A DNA stretch of 64,000 nucleotides, taken from assembly GCF_017348835.2 (NCBI RefSeq), contig NZ_CP071375.1; one strand, written 5' to 3'. A model generated the notes under the pieces. The model was not told where the DNA came from, ran no database searches, and saw nothing but the letters and a program-made list of their open reading frames with translations. The position numbers and the translations under genes are program-made. Of the stretch, positions 1,762 through 35,727 are shown piece by piece (the first letter of the stretch is position 1; the number at the start of each line of letters is the position of its first letter). Source of the DNA: Escherichia coli (GTDB taxonomy: Bacteria; Pseudomonadota; Gammaproteobacteria; Enterobacterales; Enterobacteriaceae).

Positions 1762-3363
1762 TCAGGATACCACTGGCGCAATTTGTAACTGCGCCGACTC
1801 ATGTCGTGCTACTTCATGTTCTTCAAGGGTAAATACCGCCACACGCGACGAAAGATGGTCGGCCTGATTCGCCAGTTGTTCCGTTGCCACCGCCGCTTCT
1901 TCTACCAGCGAGGCGTTCTGCTGAGTCACCTGATCCATCTGGCTGACAGCCTGTGCAACCTGCTCAATCCCCCGCCGTTGTTCTTCCGACGCCGAAGCAA
2001 TTTCTCCCATAATGTCGTTCACGCGGGTCACCGAACTGACAATATCGGTCATGGTCGCGGCGGCGTTATTCACCAGTTTCGAACCCTGCTGGACACGATT
2101 GACTGACTCTTCGATCAGCCCTTTGATCTCTTTTGCTGCCTGCGCGCTACGGCTGGCAAGATTGCGCACTTCACCTGCTACTACCGCAAAACCACGCCCC
2201 TGCTCTCCGGCGCGAGCCGCTTCCACTGCCGCATTCAGGGCCAGAATATTAGTCTGGAAAGCAATTCCGTCGATAACGCTGATAATGTCGCCAATTTTTT
2301 GCGAGCTGGTGGCGATCTCCTGCATGGTGTGAGTCATGGTACTGACCTGAACACCGCCCGCCTGCGCCGTTGTCGCGGCATTTTTTGCCAGTTCCGACGC
2401 CTGTCGTGCGTTATCGGCGTTTTGCCCTACCGTGGCGGTTAATTGCTCCATACTGGCGGCCGTTTGTGCCAGCGATGCCGCCTGCTGTTCGGTACGACTT
2501 GAGATATCGTTATTGCCTGCGACAATCTCCGCGATCCCAATGTGCATCTCATGGCGTCCCTTACGCACATCACTCACCGTCCCACGCAAAGCCTGCTGCA
2601 TGGTCTTCAGGCTGGCAAAAATGGCGGTGATCTCATTACGACCATATACCGCAATCGGACGCGCCAGATTACCCGCAGCAATGCTGTCAAAATGGCTACC
2701 GATAATGGCCAGTGGTTGAACAATCATCTTGCGCGTCCACCACAGCGCACTGCTGATGTAGATCGCCGCAACAATAATCATGCTGATAAACACCAGCGCC
2801 GAAATCTGATAGTTACGCTGGCTTTGCGCACTGGCGGCTTCCAGCACATGGTTGATCTCCAGCTGCCAGGCCTCAAAGTTAACGTCAAACGCATTCTGTG
2901 ATCCCTGCACCGGCGCAGTGAGGAAATCCGAAAGTTGATTACTTTCAAGCCAGGTCGCCTGATGTTCGAGATCGTTGTGCCAGCGGGCAAAACTTTTCTC
3001 CGTCTCTTTTTGCAATGCCCTGACGTGCTCGTTGCCCGCAGTCATCGCCATAAAACTTTTAAACAGCGTGGTGGATTGCGTCAGACTGGCGCGCGCCGTC
3101 GTCATCAACGTTTTAATGTCATCCGCCGGATAGCTAAGCGCTGTCAGAGTGCCTGCTTTGTTCAGCGCGGTACTGGCCTGTAACATTACCGCCCGAGTTT
3201 GCGCTAATGCCGCACGTTGCTGATTGCTCTGCTCGACCTGATTCAGTCGTTGCAAATCGTCGCGAAATGCCCAATAAGACATGCCGTTACTGCCAATCTG
3301 CAAGATCCCGCAGAGAATCAAAATTAAAAACAGCGTGGTCGAAATTCGAATACGATTAAACAT
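1762..3363 (-). CDS. tap: Methyl-accepting chemotaxis protein IV (dipeptide/pyrimidine sensor) Tap
   Basis: ORF track 1762..3366 (534 aa); known Tap begins MFNRIRISTTL at the second Met; conserved MCP signalling domain. Confidence 0.95.
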   Translation of the reverse strand: MFNRIRISTTLFLILILCGILQIGSNGMSYWAFRDDLQRLNQVEQSNQQRAALAQTRAVMLQASTALNKAGTLTALSYPADDIKTLMTTARASLTQSTTLFKSFMAMTAGNEHVRALQKETEKSFARWHNDLEHQATWLESNQLSDFLTAPVQGSQNAFDVNFEAWQLEINHVLEAASAQSQRNYQISALVFISMIIVAAIYISSALWWTRKMIVQPLAIIGSHFDSIAAGNLARPIAVYGRNEITAIFASLKTMQQALRGTVSDVRKGRHEMHIGIAEIVAGNNDISSRTEQQAASLAQTAASMEQLTATVGQNADNARQASELAKNAATTAQAGGVQVSTMTHTMQEIATSSQKIGDIISVIDGIAFQTNILALNAAVEAARAGEQGRGFAVVAGEVRNLASRSAQAAKEIKGLIEESVNRVQQGSKLVNNAAATMTDIVSSVTRVNDIMGEIASASEEQRRGIEQVAQAVSQMDQVTQQNASLVEEAAVATEQLANQADHLSSRVAVFTLEEHEVARHESAQLQIAPVVS

Positions 3364-3408
3364 CAACGCTCCCCATCAGGCGGCAATGACCGCGTTAGTA
3401 AATACTCG

Positions 3409-5070
3409 TCAAAATGTTTCCCAGTTTGGATCTTGTTCAGCAATTCGCAGTCGTGGCTGTGCCGGTGGTTGCTCACTGGCAGGACGGGATGGTGTTTGCG
3501 GTTTATTGGTGAGTGGGCTGGCTGCCAGACGAAACGTGGAAACCGCTTGCGTTAAACGACTAGCCTGTTCTTCCAGCGCAGCTGCGGCGGCAGCTGATTC
3601 CTGCACCAGCGATGCGTTCTGTTGCGTGACGCGATCCATTTCCGAAACCGCCAATGCGACTTGATCGATGCCACGGCTCTGTTCATCCGATGCCGATGCA
3701 ATCTCGCCCATAATGTCAGTCACGCGAGTGACAGCATTGACGATATTGTTCATTGTTTCCCCGGCGCTTTCGACCAGCACCGAACCGGTATCAACGCGCG
3801 AGACGGAGTCTTCAATGAGGGCTTTGATCTCTTTTGCCGCCTGGGCGCTACGACTGGCAAGATTGCGCACTTCGCCCGCCACCACGGCAAAACCACGGCC
3901 CTGTTCACCCGCACGCGCGGCTTCAACCGCGGCATTCAGCGCGAGGATATTAGTCTGGAAGGCAATACCGTCGATAACGCTGATAATGTCGGCAATTTTC
4001 TTCGAACTATCGGCGATCTCATGCATCGTTTTCACTACGCCATCCACCACTTTGCCGCCGTGCTGGGCGGTGTCGGAGGCACTTTGCGCCAGTTGCGAGG
4101 CCTGGCGGGCGTTATCGGCGTTTTGCTTCACTGTCGCGGTGAGCTGCTCCATGCTGGCGGCAGTTTCTTCCAGCGCGGATGCCTGCTGTTCAGTACGGGA
4201 GGAAAGATCGGTGTTGCCCGCCGCAATTTCACGGGTACCGGCATAGATGGCATCTGAACCTTCGCGGACATGAGTGACGGTGTCAGTCAAAGAGCGTTGC
4301 ATATGTGAAACGCTCTGCGCCAGGTCGCCCATTTCACTGCGCCCGTCAATGGTCAGGGTATTCGCCAGGTTACCACCGGCGATTTCGCGAATGTGAGCAA
4401 TAATTTTTGCCAGCGGTGTAAGCAACATACGGCGAATGCCGTACCACGCCACCAGCAGAATCAATACCACCACCAGCGCGATAACCGCCAGTTGCCACTG
4501 GGCAAATCGGTAATCATCTGCGTTGTCAGTGACGATATTGCGATACAGTTTTTCACTGCTGAGGGCGTACTGAGCAAACGCTTCGCCCATTGCATTTTGC
4601 ATTCCCTGGGTTGGCTGAGCGAAATAAGCTCCAGTATTGCCATAATCAAGATAATCAATCAGTTCAGTTAACGCTGTGTAATAGTTTTTATATTTTTCAT
4701 CAATATTACGACTGGTAGCGACCATTTCAGGTAACGGTGCCATGCTTTTGAATTTTTTATAATGAGTCGCGGCCTGGGCCAATGTTTTCCTGGCGCTATC
4801 GAGCAATTCAACTTTGGCGTTACTTTGTTGATTGGAGGAATCCATCATCATCCGCACCGCTGAACGACTCAGGTTAATGCGCGTTTGCAGCATTAAATCC
4901 CAGGTTGACGTCAGCTCGCCCTGCTGTTCCCGTAATTGATTGGAAACCACAAAGCTCTTCTGGCTATGGTGAAGGGAAGAAAAAAACAGACTGCCGGAAA
5001 TAAGCTGTAACAGTGCGAATACCCCCAGCACCATTACCAACAGCGTGACTACGCGGATACGGTTAATCAT
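3409..5070 (-). CDS. tar: Methyl-accepting chemotaxis protein II (aspartate/maltose sensor) Tar
   Basis: ORF track 3409..5091 is 5'-extended; known Tar starts [13 protein letters not shown] (553 aa) and ends with the NWETF pentapeptide. Confidence 0.95.
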
Positions 5071-5101
5071 AAGGCACCTTCCTGAAAACAAGTTGATCTC
5101 G

Positions 5102-5128
5102 TTATCGGCAAGAAGGGGGGAAACTTTA
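5102..5128 (-). promoter_or_regulatory. FliA (sigma-28) class III promoter of tar-tap-cheRBYZ
   Basis: Minus strand reads TAAAGTTT-N11-GCCGATAA, an exact match to the sigma-28 consensus, about 30 bp upstream of the tar start. Confidence 0.85.
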
Positions 5129-5155
5129 TTGCTGATGCCACCCGCCGCGAAATTG

Positions 5156-5186
5156 AAATAAAAAACCCGATGCGCAGATCATCGGG
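5156..5186 (-). terminator. Rho-independent terminator after cheW (end of the motAB-cheAW operon)
   Basis: GC-rich inverted repeat cccgatg...catcggg followed on the minus strand by a T-run. Confidence 0.7.
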
Positions 5187-5214
5187 TTCATTTCAATTGA
5201 GGAAATCGGGAGAA

Positions 5215-5718
5215 TTACGCCACTTCTGACGCCGCGCTATCTAACAGCGCCATCTCTTCGCTGTTCAGCAGTTTTTCGATGTTCACCAGAATCAACATAC
5301 GGTCGCCCAGTGCGCCCAGTCCAGTGAGATATTCTGTTGAAAGCGTCACGGCAAACTCTGGTGCCGGACGAATTTGCTCCGCCGTCAATGAAAGCACGTC
5401 TGAAACGCCGTCAACCACGATGCCGACCACCCGCTGTCCGAGATTCAGGACGATAACTACCGTGTTGTCGTTATAGTCCACATCCACCTGGCTGAACTTA
5501 ATTCGTAAGTCAACAATCGGCACAATAACGCCGCGCAGATTCGTGACGCCTTTGATAAACGCTGGCGTGTTCGCAATCCGTGTTACCTGATCGTAGCCAC
5601 GGATCTCCTGCACTTTCAGGATATCAATACCGTACTCTTCATCACCAAGGGTAAATACCAGAAATTCCTGGCCTGACGGCTCGCTGGCCAGCTTTGTTAC
5701 ATTCGTCATACCGGTCAT
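5215..5718 (-). CDS. cheW: Chemotaxis coupling protein CheW
   Basis: 167-aa ORF matching CheW. Confidence 0.96.
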
Positions 5719-33714: not shown

Positions 33715-35727
33715 TTAACCCTGCAGCAGAGACAGAACCTGCTGCGGTACCTGGTTGGCTTTTGCCAACACGGAGTTACCGGCCTGCTGGATGATCTGCG
33801 CTTTCGACATATTGGACACTTCGGTCGCATAGTCGGCGTCCTGAATACGGGACTGCGCTTCAGACAGGTTGGTAGTGGTGTTGTTCAGGTTGGTAACCGC
33901 GGAATCCAGACGGTTCTGCACCGCACCGAGGGAGGAGCGGAATTTGTCGATGGAGCTGATCGCTTCGTCCAGAGCTTTCAGGGGATCGGCGGTGGAACTG
34001 GATGCAGTAGTAGCTTCTGTTGTTAACTTACCATCAGCTGTTTCATAGATGGTACCACCGGTGCTGTTGGTAATAGCCCCATTTTTTTGTTCAAAGTAGG
34101 TTACATCTTTTGTAGCATTGGCTGAAAGTGCACCATCTTCGACATAAACATCAGCATTTGCAGCAGCTTTCACATCTCCATTGGAAACTGTGTAAGTTAC
34201 TGTACCTGTACCGCCCATATCAATGGTAAAATTGCTTTTTGTCAGATTTGCCATACCTTCGGCACTGACATGTGCGTTGGTGACATTGACAGTGTCTACT
34301 TTTGCTAAACTGGTGAACTGAGCGCCACTTCCTGTTGTGCTATAAACAGTGTTCTGGCCGGTACCTGAAGTTACGGTTAAGGTAGCATCCTTACTGTTAG
34401 CAATTAAATTATCTAACGAAGCAGCTGTATTTCCTCCAGCCGTTGTAGTGAATCCACCAGTAGTCGCATCAAGATAAAGTGCACTACCATCAGCCGCTGT
34501 TATGTTTCCATTACTTGCTACCAAAATGTCTGTAGCAGCGCCTCCCTCAATACTTACCTTAGCCGCAAATGCACCACCTGCAAGAATCTGAGAATTTGTT
34601 GAGGTCTGAATTCCTGCTCCTGCGGACTGAACAGACATTCCGGAAGCTGTACCAGAAGTAATTGTAATTGTAGTTGCAACCCCAACTGGAACCGCACCGG
34701 TAGAATCGCTGTTGGAAATTAAACCATCCCACGTCGCTGCGGTATCGTTACCTGCATTCGTTTTTGTCAAGTTTCCCTGTTTATCTAAATACAGCGTCGC
34801 ATTATCATCTGCCGCAGTAATTTTTCCATCCTGGGAAATATTAACTTTCTGCTCTTTACCACCAATAGTCACTGTCGCCTGCGACGAATCACCGGTGTTT
34901 GGATTAATGATGCTTAACGTCTTCGCTGAATCGGCACCATCTGCAGCAAAACTATAAGATTTACTTGCTGCATCATAGGTGTAACCATTCTTTGCAGCCA
35001 CGCCAAAAGCGTTTGCCCCTCCCCCAGTGATCACTGATCCATCGGTGATATTAGCTAACAGATCGGATGCTTTGGCTTTGTCATTACTAATTGTGTTTGT
35101 ATACGCGGTCACGCCATTGGTATCTGTGGTGCCCTTAGTGAAACCAGCCAGTTTTAAATCGTCGCTTGTCGCAGCTGTATTCGCTACAGAACCTTTACCG
35201 TTAACGTTAAAACCAGCCAGATTCAGCGTATCAGAGTCAATTTTCTTCAGATCAATAGTAATCGTTTCGCCATCGTTCGCGCCGACCTGAATTTTCATCG
35301 AGCCATCTTTTGACAGTACGTTCACGCCGTTGAACTGGGTTTGGCCGGATACGCGGTCAATTTCATCAAGACGGGATTTGATTTCGTCCTGAATGGAGTC
35401 CAGGTCAGAGGTGGAGTTAGTTCCGGTCGTCGCCTGAACCGTCAGTTCACGAATACGCTGTAAGTTGTTGTTGATTTCGGACAGCGCGCCTTCGGTGGTC
35501 TGTGCAACAGAAATACCGTCGTTGGCGTTACGTGCAGCCTGAGTCAGGCCTTTAATGTTAGAAGTAAAACGGTTAGCAATCGCCTGACCTGCGGCGTCAT
35601 CCTTCGCGCTGTTAATACGCAAGCCAGAAGACAGACGCTCGATAGAACTCGACAGCGCAGACTGGTTCTTGTTGATATTATTTTGAGTGATCAGCGAGAG
35701 GCTGTTGGTATTAATGACTTGTGCCAT
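33715..35727 (-). CDS. fliC: Flagellin FliC, 669/670-aa variant with a long central variable domain (non-K-12 H type)
   Basis: Conserved flagellin N-terminus (MAQVINTNSLSLITQNNINKNQSALSSSIERLSSGLRINSAKDDAAGQAIANRF...) and C-terminus (...LAKANQVPQQVLSLLQG) flank a roughly 400-aa Thr/Ser/Gly/Ala-rich middle region. Confidence 0.95.
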   Translation of the reverse strand: MAQVINTNSLSLITQNNINKNQSALSSSIERLSSGLRINSAKDDAAGQAIANRFTSNIKGLTQAARNANDGISVAQTTEGALSEINNNLQRIRELTVQATTGTNSTSDLDSIQDEIKSRLDEIDRVSGQTQFNGVNVLSKDGSMKIQVGANDGETITIDLKKIDSDTLNLAGFNVNGKGSVANTAATSDDLKLAGFTKGTTDTNGVTAYTNTISNDKAKASDLLANITDGSVITGGGANAFGVAAKNGYTYDAASKSYSFAADGADSAKTLSIINPNTGDSSQATVTIGGKEQKVNISQDGKITAADDNATLYLDKQGNLTKTNAGNDTAATWDGLISNSDSTGAVPVGVATTITITSGTASGMSVQSAGAGIQTSTNSQILAGGAFAAKVSIEGGAATDILVASNGNITAADGSALYLDATTGGFTTTAGGNTAASLDNLIANSKDATLTVTSGTGQNTVYSTTGSGAQFTSLAKVDTVNVTNAHVSAEGMANLTKSNFTIDMGGTGTVTYTVSNGDVKAAANADVYVEDGALSANATKDVTYFEQKNGAITNSTGGTIYETADGKLTTEATTASSSTADPLKALDEAISSIDKFRSSLGAVQNRLDSAVTNLNNTTTNLSEAQSRIQDADYATEVSNMSKAQIIQQAGNSVLAKANQVPQQVLSLLQG

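Follow-up and report, generated by a model that had tools for sequence, protein, structure and literature searches.

The tar and tap genes and their setting

The window analysed here is a 64,000-nt stretch of an Escherichia coli genome (NCBI RefSeq assembly GCF_017348835.2, contig NZ_CP071375.1). It carries two tandem open reading frames, both on the minus strand, with ATG start codons at 3363 and 5070. The former is tap (1762..3363, 533 aa), which encodes methyl-accepting chemotaxis protein IV, the dipeptide receptor; the latter is tar (3409..5070, 553 aa), which encodes methyl-accepting chemotaxis protein II, the aspartate/maltose receptor. Profile scores placed the TarH, HAMP, and MCPsignal domains at residues 1–167, 209–260, and 323–480 of Tap and at residues 1–169, 212–262, and 325–482 of Tar, with PF02203, PF00672, and PF00015 above the curated cut-offs in both proteins. 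Tar ends in DPNWETF and thus carries NWETF, while Tap ends in QIAPVVS and is without it; presence of NWETF marks the high-abundance receptor class and its absence the low-abundance class (PMC4692393). The gene order is cheR-tap-tar-cheW-cheA, the pair being flanked by cheW and cheR. The tar/tap region was 99.9% identical to that of strain PE164, where the RefSeq annotation reads tap and tar, and 98.9% identical to the K-12 derivatives MC1061 and HB101, which are likewise annotated tar/tap. The reading frames, the domains, and the annotation of the 99.9%-identical genome confirm the gene identities and tandem placement given in the initial annotation. Both genes are intact in the window; the fusion allele described below is absent from it and present in relatives.

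Upstream of tar lies a predicted promoter, TAAAGTTT-N11-GCCGATAA (5102..5128, minus strand), which we take to be of the sigma-28 (FliA) type from its likeness to the consensus. The same predicted promoter would also drive any Tar::Tap fusion. An intrinsic-terminator-like hairpin with a T-run (5163..5189, minus strand) is located after cheW and ahead of the tar promoter. The 45-nt spacer between tar and tap (3364..3408, minus strand) contains the tap ribosome-binding site GGGGAG. Because no promoter-like or terminator-like site was found on the coding strand of this spacer, tap is probably co-transcribed with tar.

Extent of the similarity between tar and tap

All exact tar/tap matches of at least 14 nt lay at one offset, 1701 nt, in direct orientation, and the ungapped identity over 1800–2760 was 64%, compared with 25.4 ± 1.4% for shuffled sequences. 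Identity was 94% over the best 50 nt, 85% over the best 150 nt, 84.5% over the best 200 nt (2101–2300 with 3802–4001), and 74% over the best 600 nt; it was 72.8% for the MCPsignal domain and 69% for the whole cytoplasmic region after HAMP. The longest stretch with at least 90% identity was 71 nt and the longest with at least 80% was 257 nt, corresponding to the conserved signalling core, which occupies 2072..2328 in tap and, in register, 3773..4029 in tar. The longest perfect runs were 24, 20, 18, 16, and 14 nt, and the divergence around every perfect block was 15–30%. In the ligand-binding halves, identity per 100-nt window was 35–44% for nucleotides and 9–36% for amino acids.

The initial annotation had described long near-identical stretches in direct orientation, with divergent ligand-binding halves. 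The similarity, the orientation, and the divergence of the binding halves all hold, but near-identity does not: the best 200 nt reach only 84.5%, and the longest perfect run is 24 nt. Its example pairing, 2100–2300 with 3790–3990, is 11 nt out of register, with 22% identity at offset 1690 and 84% at offset 1701. It had also taken about 80% identity across the signalling domain as the level below which recombination would lack support. The whole domain lies below that level and only the 257-nt core above it; the level itself was mis-specified, because fusions arise despite a domain identity of 72.8%. Finally, a hazard of assembly collapse had been raised. The two genes share four k-mers at k = 21 and none at k = 25 or k = 31, and the pair was resolved in 4,321 complete genomes. 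Since tar and tap have no k-mer in common at k ≥ 25, collapse is not a realistic risk.

Natural Tar::Tap fusions

Natural in-register fusions were found in public genomes. Each is an exact 1701-bp deletion that leaves a single 1608-bp gene (535 aa) between cheW and cheR, in the constant context cheA-cheW-fusion-cheR-cheB. Among 5,426 complete genomes, three have such a fusion (ET474, PEC389, and ETEC4088), and so do about 130 further contigs in public assemblies; the alleles recur across NCBI, ENA, and Logan contigs, always beside the same genes. Parental painting revealed one clean switch from tap-type to tar-type sequence, with 789–791 of 797 informative sites fitting. The 1701-bp deletion, the 1608-bp reading frame, and the single switch were all found in loci L004, L007/L013, L015, L016, and L017, and locus L005 is represented at the protein level, by an accession identical to that of L004. 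PGAP labels the hybrid genes plainly as tar. The suggestion that the pair is a substrate for deletion or fusion is thus borne out by natural 1701-bp deletions, with the qualification that their joints lie in blocks of 8–24 nt, not in long near-identical homology, and that they are rare.

A megablast search with a synthetic junction query filtered at more than 80% coverage was non-discriminating, as 5,379 genomes passed; the coverage filter fails because megablast extends across the 75–85% paralogous core. The fusion genomes were isolated by identity and piece count instead (n = 3). A junction query for the reciprocal Tap::Tar hybrid had no match at 95% identity or above. Other rearrangements made up the top matches of the reciprocal query, namely an IS1 truncation and in-frame deletions of 81 and 222 bp. 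The literature searched, whose coverage is incomplete, contained no description of natural Tar::Tap hybrids.

Fusion breakpoints

At least four breakpoint classes were distinguished, each within a block of perfect identity (24, 18, 11, or 8 nt), and the natural joints fall in Tar codons 290–368. The class A crossover lies in the 24-nt block (2267..2290, partner 3968–3991; tar codons 360–368); it is the fusion of ET474 and PEC389, and its protein occurs on 71 contigs. Class B, the fusion of ETEC4088, uses the 18-nt block (2408..2425, partner 4109–4126; tar codons 315–321), and its protein occurs on 28 contigs, in addition to variants. The class C crossover is located in an 8-nt block (2453..2460, partner 4154–4161) that extends to 16 matches in 17 with its flank. 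This class was found in two divergent backgrounds, with 42 differences between them over 4608 nt, which could mean either that the event recurred or that the allele spread horizontally. Class D uses an 11-nt block (2480..2490, partner 4181–4191) and was found in Logan ERR3550700.

The breakpoints favour long identity runs, with a mean of 15.25 nt where a uniform null gives 5.6 nt (P about 0.002). However, no crossover among the natural fusions was found in the 20-nt block (2153..2172, partner 3854–3873) or in the 16- and 14-nt blocks, although the 11- and 8-nt blocks were used. Block length is therefore not the sole determinant, and which block is used may also depend on chance or on selection for hybrid function.

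Loss of tap by intragenic deletion

A more common loss of tap was found in about 1,085 genomes. It removes 1374 bp inside tap (1858..3231, codons about 45–502), with the ends joined at a short, imperfect repeat, TCG(G/A)CCTGATTC, and is carried by B2-type strains such as UTI89, S88, and Nissle. These strains keep an intact tar, along with about 228 bp of residual tap sequence. This common loss, wholly intragenic to tap, does not derive from the homology between tar and tap. Tap loss in phylogroup B2 and uropathogenic E. coli has been described (Lane et al. 2006; Borziak et al. 2013, as cited in PMC12623472 and PMC3559539). It resembles the fusions in affecting the same locus and leaving no functional Tap, but it arises from the 1374-bp intragenic deletion, not from a tar × tap exchange.

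Discussion

With a probability of roughly 0.9, we regard tar and tap as old tandem paralogues whose similar core is the product of constraint, with no detectable concerted evolution, and whose short perfect runs serve as rare deletion joints. On this reading, the two genes belong to a presumably sigma-28-driven tar-tap-cheRBYZ operon. The periplasmic ligand-binding halves have diverged past nucleotide alignability, while the cytoplasmic hairpin that touches CheA and CheW is kept almost invariant as protein. Protein constraint alone leaves a core of about 250 nt with 80–85% nucleotide identity and a few perfect runs of 8–24 nt, and these runs, placed 1701 nt apart in direct orientation, occasionally act as deletion joints. 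An in-register exchange drops the 3' end of tar, the spacer, and the 5' end of tap, generating the 1608-bp Tar(N)::Tap(C) gene. The hybrid retains the sensing domain, promoter, and ribosome-binding site of Tar; from Tap it has the tip of the hairpin, the second methylation helix, and a tail free of NWETF. The gene anatomy, the identity profile, saturation at silent sites, the fusion alleles, and the location of their joints in identity blocks are direct observations, and the pathway and phenotype are inferences from them. The pathway may be RecA-independent short-homology slippage or template switching, or else rare RecA-dependent homeologous exchange. The predicted phenotype is aspartate/maltose sensing with low-abundance-type adaptation, relying on NWETF-bearing neighbours such as Tsr.

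Ongoing gene conversion between the adjacent paralogues might instead keep the core alike. Adjacency and shared orientation would favour such concerted evolution, and the core does somewhat exceed an independent-codon null (0.845 over the best 200 nt, compared with a 95th percentile of 0.80 when codon choice is fully independent). Residual ancestry, site-specific codon preference, and very old conversion cannot be fully separated as sources of this excess. The signature expected of concerted evolution, a silent-site identity well above that of unlinked pairs or tracts with almost no silent divergence, was nevertheless absent: fourfold-site identity between tar and tap was 0.36 in the cytoplasmic region and 0.39 in the core, within the range of five unlinked paralogue pairs (0.24–0.46). 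Moreover, the unlinked tar and tsr are 76% identical, with a longest run of 28 nt, compared with 69% for the adjacent tar and tap, and the 24-nt tar/tap run is no longer than expected from silent-site identity (P = 0.165). The two private tap substitutions in the window were considered as tar-derived micro-conversions, and this was rejected because both shift away from the tar sequence. As silent-site identity is that of unlinked pairs and tar resembles tsr more than it does tap, the similarity is attributable to protein conservation, and ongoing conversion is very improbable.

Constraint with rare short-block joints has also to be set against the view that the two genes are long direct repeats, close to identical, and as such an efficient substrate for RecA-type homologous recombination and a collapse hazard. 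The minimal efficient processing segment (MEPS) is 23–27 bp for RecBC and 44–90 bp for RecF (PMC12074656, PMC8918686), and mismatch repair edits recombination between diverged sequences (PMC8918686). Fusions do occur, the repeats are direct and spaced in register, and the 24-nt block reaches the lower MEPS bound; all other blocks are 20 nt or shorter, however, and the blocks of breakpoint classes B, D, and C (18, 11, and 8 nt) fall short of MEPS. Identity over the best 200 nt and over the domain is only 84.5% and 72.8%, a divergence expected to provoke mismatch-repair anti-recombination, and at none of the tar/tap blocks was the low flanking divergence sought around an initiating block found (15–30% throughout). 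The scarcity of fusions (3 of 5,426 complete genomes) and the lack of a Tap::Tar match to the junction query at 95% identity or above also count against an efficient substrate, as do the missing shared k-mers at k ≥ 25 and the 4,321 resolved genomes against collapse. The identity and k-mer numbers largely refute the long-repeat account, which we consider unlikely. Conversely, the fusions might themselves be assembly or annotation artefacts, that is, collapsed paralogues: the joints sit in exact sequence common to both genes, at which a graph assembler might connect the wrong paths, and PGAP calls the hybrids simply tar. Weighed against common assembler k-mer sizes, however, the shared blocks of 8–24 nt are short, lying under the k = 25 at which tar and tap no longer share k-mers. 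Three of the fusion assemblies represent complete genomes, identical protein sequences recur on 71 and 28 contigs across NCBI, ENA, and Logan beside the same genes, and painting yields a single clean switch at 789–791 of 797 sites. An artefact is very improbable.

For practice, a 535-aa "tar" directly adjoining cheR should be annotated as a Tar::Tap hybrid, not as plain Tar. A strain with the fusion is predicted to be without dipeptide (Tap) sensing, and its Tar to be without the CheR/CheB tether. The locus offers a natural example in which perfect blocks of 8–24 nt within paralogues of about 80% identity suffice for in-register fusion, and adjacency has not made tar and tap uniform. Assembly and quality checks need not treat the pair as a collapse hazard. 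The textbook view of the chemotaxis operon is unchanged. A tentative further reading, which we think rather doubtful as a whole, is that the natural hybrids recur as heritable alleles among wild E. coli and Shigella and form a second route of Tap loss, distinct from the B2 deletion; that the fusion event also turns Tar into an NWETF-less, low-abundance-type receptor; and that the hybrids could be selected, with aspartate/maltose adaptation retuned, rather than products of neutral decay.

The E. coli K-12 Tar-Tap hybrids that Slocum, Halden and Parkinson studied in 1987 reportedly arose as spontaneous deletions. Laboratory work has already documented deletion and fusion between tar and tap (Slocum, Halden and Parkinson 1987); the case is an ordinary one, and the natural fusions are a modest addition at the population level. 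PMC2229510 cites that study (J Bacteriol 169:2938, 1987) as a source of functional chimeras. The K-12 hybrids reportedly likewise join an N-terminal part of Tar to a C-terminal part of Tap through deletion between the homologous cytoplasmic regions. They were laboratory isolates, whereas the present hybrids, for which four breakpoints are mapped, occur in isolates of wild, clinical, and animal origin. The engineered Tar-Tap and Tap-Tar chimeras (Weerasuriya, Schneider and Manson, J Bacteriol 180:914, 1998) appear to share the same domain-swap logic; their junctions were chosen and made in both directions, whereas the natural alleles use identity blocks and the junction query found no Tap::Tar form at 95% identity or above. 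Work on receptor abundance (Feng, Baumgartner and Hazelbauer 1997) is reportedly similar in that signalling and adaptation track the cytoplasmic half and the presence or absence of NWETF. The joints also resemble short-homology deletions between direct repeats (Shen and Huang 1986, as cited in PMC8918686 and PMC12074656), in which perfect repeats form the joints and longer blocks are preferred, but most blocks here (18, 11, and 8 nt) are shorter than the MEPS of 23–27 bp given there. To judge from the in-register geometry of the joints, imperfect homology in the flanks probably helps the sequences to align.

Organization of the tar-tap locus

Open reading frame listing and codon-aware alignment placed tap at 1762-3363 (533 aa) and tar at 3409-5070 (553 aa), arranged in tandem and both on the minus strand, with ATG start codons at 3363 and 5070, respectively. 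When 5,426 complete E. coli genomes were searched with Megablast, the closest strain was PE164 (99.9% identity), in which the two genes are annotated as tap (MCP IV) and tar (MCP II) within the order cheB-cheR-tap-tar-cheW-cheA-motB-motA-flhC-flhD. TarH, HAMP, and MCPsignal domains were detected well over the Pfam cut-offs in both proteins, and the NWETF C-terminus was present in Tar and absent from Tap. A terminator-like hairpin lies after cheW, upstream of tar (5163-5189), and between the hairpin and tar there is a putative sigma-28 promoter, TAAAGTTT-N11-GCCGATAA (5102-5128), which fits the sigma-28 consensus. The 45-nt tar-tap spacer contains nothing but a ribosome-binding site, suggesting that tap is co-transcribed with tar.

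Extent and origin of the tar-tap similarity

The initial annotation had described long near-identical stretches in direct orientation within the signalling regions, next to divergent ligand-binding halves. The orientation was confirmed, as all exact matches of at least 14 nt fell at one offset, 1701, and ungapped identity over 1800-2760 was 64%, compared with 25.4 ± 1.4% in shuffles. The periplasmic halves were indeed divergent, with 35-44% identity per 100-nt window, and were effectively unalignable as DNA. "Near-identical", however, overstated a real paralogy. Identity was 94% over the top 50 nt, 85% over the top 150 nt, 84.5% over the top 200 nt (2101-2300 / 3802-4001), and 74% over the top 600 nt, falling to 72.8% over the whole MCPsignal domain and 69% over the cytoplasmic region after HAMP. 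The longest stretch was 71 nt at an identity of at least 90% and 257 nt at at least 80%, and the longest perfect runs were 24, 20, 18, 16, and 14 nt. The example pairing offered with that description was shifted by 11 nt from the true register; its identity was 22%, and rose to 84% once the offset was corrected. The accompanying concern about assembly collapse was not realistic, given that tar and tap had four k-mers in common at k=21 and two at k=23, no k-mer of 25 nt or longer was shared, and the pair was resolved in thousands of complete genomes.

Recent homogenisation of tar and tap was rejected by comparison with tsr and trg of K-12, paralogues that are not linked to the pair. Fourfold-degenerate-site identity between tar and tap was 0.36 in the cytoplasmic region and 0.39 in the core, within the range of 0.24-0.46 for the other five paralogue pairs. 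Moreover, tar was nearer to the unlinked tsr (L009, the tsr locus, 3658-5313; 76% cytoplasmic nucleotide identity and a 28-nt perfect run) than to the adjacent tap, which probably explains the second megablast place in most genomes. When silent identity was shuffled among identical-residue codons, the longest run reached at least 24 nt in 16.5% of trials. The core was somewhat more similar than would be predicted if codons were chosen fully independently, but this excess is not evidence of tar-tap conversion, because the silent identity of unlinked pairs was equal or higher. These comparisons indicate that the core similarity reflects protein-level constraint on the CheA/CheW-binding hairpin.

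Natural Tar::Tap fusions

A synthetic Tar::Tap junction query against the 5,426 complete genomes picked out three, ET474, PEC389, and ETEC4088, each with one 1608-bp gene between cheW and cheR. This length equals the 3309 bp from tap stop to tar start minus 1701 bp, and the hybrid retains TarH, HAMP, and MCPsignal. When each informative site was painted by parent, every hybrid showed one clean switch. The breakpoint was within the 24-nt block 2267-2290 / 3968-3991 in ET474 (class A) and within the 18-nt block 2408-2425 / 4109-4126 in ETEC4088 (class B). The exact ET474-type protein was found on 71 contigs and the ETEC4088-type on 28 in NCBI, ENA, and Logan assemblies, invariably in the context cheA-cheW-fusion-cheR-cheB. 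Searching a large protein collection turned up more 535-aa hybrids, and nucleotide-level mapping placed further breakpoints in the 8-nt block 2453-2460 (class C; 16/17 including the flank) and the 11-nt block 2480-2490 (class D). Class C occurred in two backgrounds 42 of 4608 nt apart, one of them labelled Shigella flexneri. The four breakpoints were biased to long identity runs (mean 15.25 nt versus 5.6 nt under a uniform null, P ~0.002). The reciprocal Tap::Tar hybrid had no place at an identity of at least 95% in any of the 5,426 genomes.

Four apparent Tar-Tap fusions that are in frame but out of register, P0017 (771 aa), P0018 (688 aa), P0027 (656 aa, partial), and P0028 (680 aa), were seen on one or two contigs each, with signalling or sensing segments duplicated; they may be real rearrangements or misassemblies.

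The hybrids retain the promoter, ribosome-binding site, sensing domain, HAMP domain, and first methylation helix of Tar, and gain the hairpin tip, second methylation helix, and NWETF-less tail of Tap. Judging from published work on receptors of high and low abundance (PMC4692393), the hybrid should sense aspartate and maltose, and its efficient adaptation is predicted to need NWETF-bearing neighbours, while dipeptide sensing would be gone in the fusion strains. RefSeq (PGAP) labels the 535-aa hybrids (fusion loci L004, L005, and L006, 3001-4608) "tar: methyl-accepting chemotaxis protein II", so the annotation does not reveal that tap and the NWETF tail are missing.

Possible routes to the fusions

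The minimal efficient processing segment (MEPS) of the RecBC pathway is 23-27 bp, and mismatch repair aborts exchange that enters diverged sequence (PMC12074656, PMC8918686). Rare RecA-dependent homeologous exchange is an alternative source of the fusions, and the 24-nt block does reach the MEPS bound; it is the only one to do so, and three of the four classes lie on shorter blocks amid 15-30% divergence. Short-homology deletion is therefore the most likely route, in which replication slippage or template switching would occur between direct repeats 1.7 kb apart and the imperfect flanking homology would promote in-register pairing.

Other deletions at the locus

The initial proposal that the pair is a substrate for recombination was supported for fusion, whereas the main natural deletion proved unrelated to tar/tap homology. 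Only 4,321 of 5,406 matching genomes had an intact tar-tap pair, and nearly all of the remainder (~1,085) carried one common 1374-bp deletion (1858-3231) wholly within tap, with the imperfect repeat TCG(G/A)CCTGATTC at its junction. An origin by tar-tap exchange was rejected, since such exchange would take out exactly 1701 bp. The deletion spares tar and leaves tap remnants of ~96 and ~132 bp; one tap remnant carries the pseudogene label "Tar ligand binding domain-containing". Carriers are B2-type and include UTI89, S88, APEC O1, IHE3034, Nissle, and ATCC 11775. This is consistent with the published Tap loss in B2 and uropathogenic strains (PMC12623472, PMC3559539); Tap is termed "completely lost" there.

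Further deletions at the locus also terminate in short repeats. In 30COLEC (L003, 1501-3021), an 81-bp in-frame tap deletion (2398-2478) lies between CGCCTG hexamers, and the search showed the same span in LD39-1, LR-33, and NCTC9066. Within tar, a 17/19 direct repeat, CCACGGC(T/C)CTGTTCA(T/C)CCG, at 3671-3689 and 3893-3911 codes for EQSRG and EQGRG motifs. A 222-bp in-frame tar deletion in strain 673 (L008, 4006-5445) is joined at this repeat and drops approximately Tar codons 393-467, a stretch that begins at the hairpin tip and extends into the C-terminal arm. In the search, PI24 and strain 472 matched strain 673 in both span and annotation.

Two independent IS1-bounded deletions enter from the argS side, ending in tar in 23CRST038 and in tap in 2023CK-01509 (loci L002, 5288-6191, and L014, 2289-4191). 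Both take out cheRBYZ and the flh genes beyond, and in 23CRST038 flhC additionally has an internal stop.

Differences between the window and PE164

Across 64 kb, the window differed from PE164 by four SNPs and two single-base indels. Two SNPs, 52 nt apart, are missense changes in tap, L287I (2505) and S270R (2556). Neither was present in any of the 4,321 complete genomes that have tap, and the top match to 2470-2590 among them had two mismatches. Each substitution makes Tap less like Tar at its position, and the conserved DLSSRTEQQ motif includes L287. Sequencing errors might account for the two changes, as might relaxed or altered selection on tap. One more SNP is in fliI (48769). The window has an extra base in dgcQ (58177, AAAA versus AAA) and in yedA (61758-61763). 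Because both genes are annotated as frameshifted pseudogenes in PE164, these indels look like PE164 assembly errors or real lesions, and both genes look intact in the window. In addition, the flagellin gene (33715-35727) is long, encoding 670 aa compared with ~498 aa for K-12 FliC, and a leucine-rich-repeat protein gene (42688-43827) lies between yedK and fliE.

Comparison with known Tar-Tap hybrids

The tar/tap feature itself is ordinary and already known. Slocum, Halden, and Parkinson reportedly described Tar/Tap homology, and Tar-Tap hybrids arising by deletion between the homologous regions, in 1987, and engineered chimeras were published in 1998. No description of natural Tar::Tap hybrids was found in the literature searched, coverage of which was incomplete. 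The recurrent natural hybrids, joined at micro-identity blocks, add modestly to what is known.
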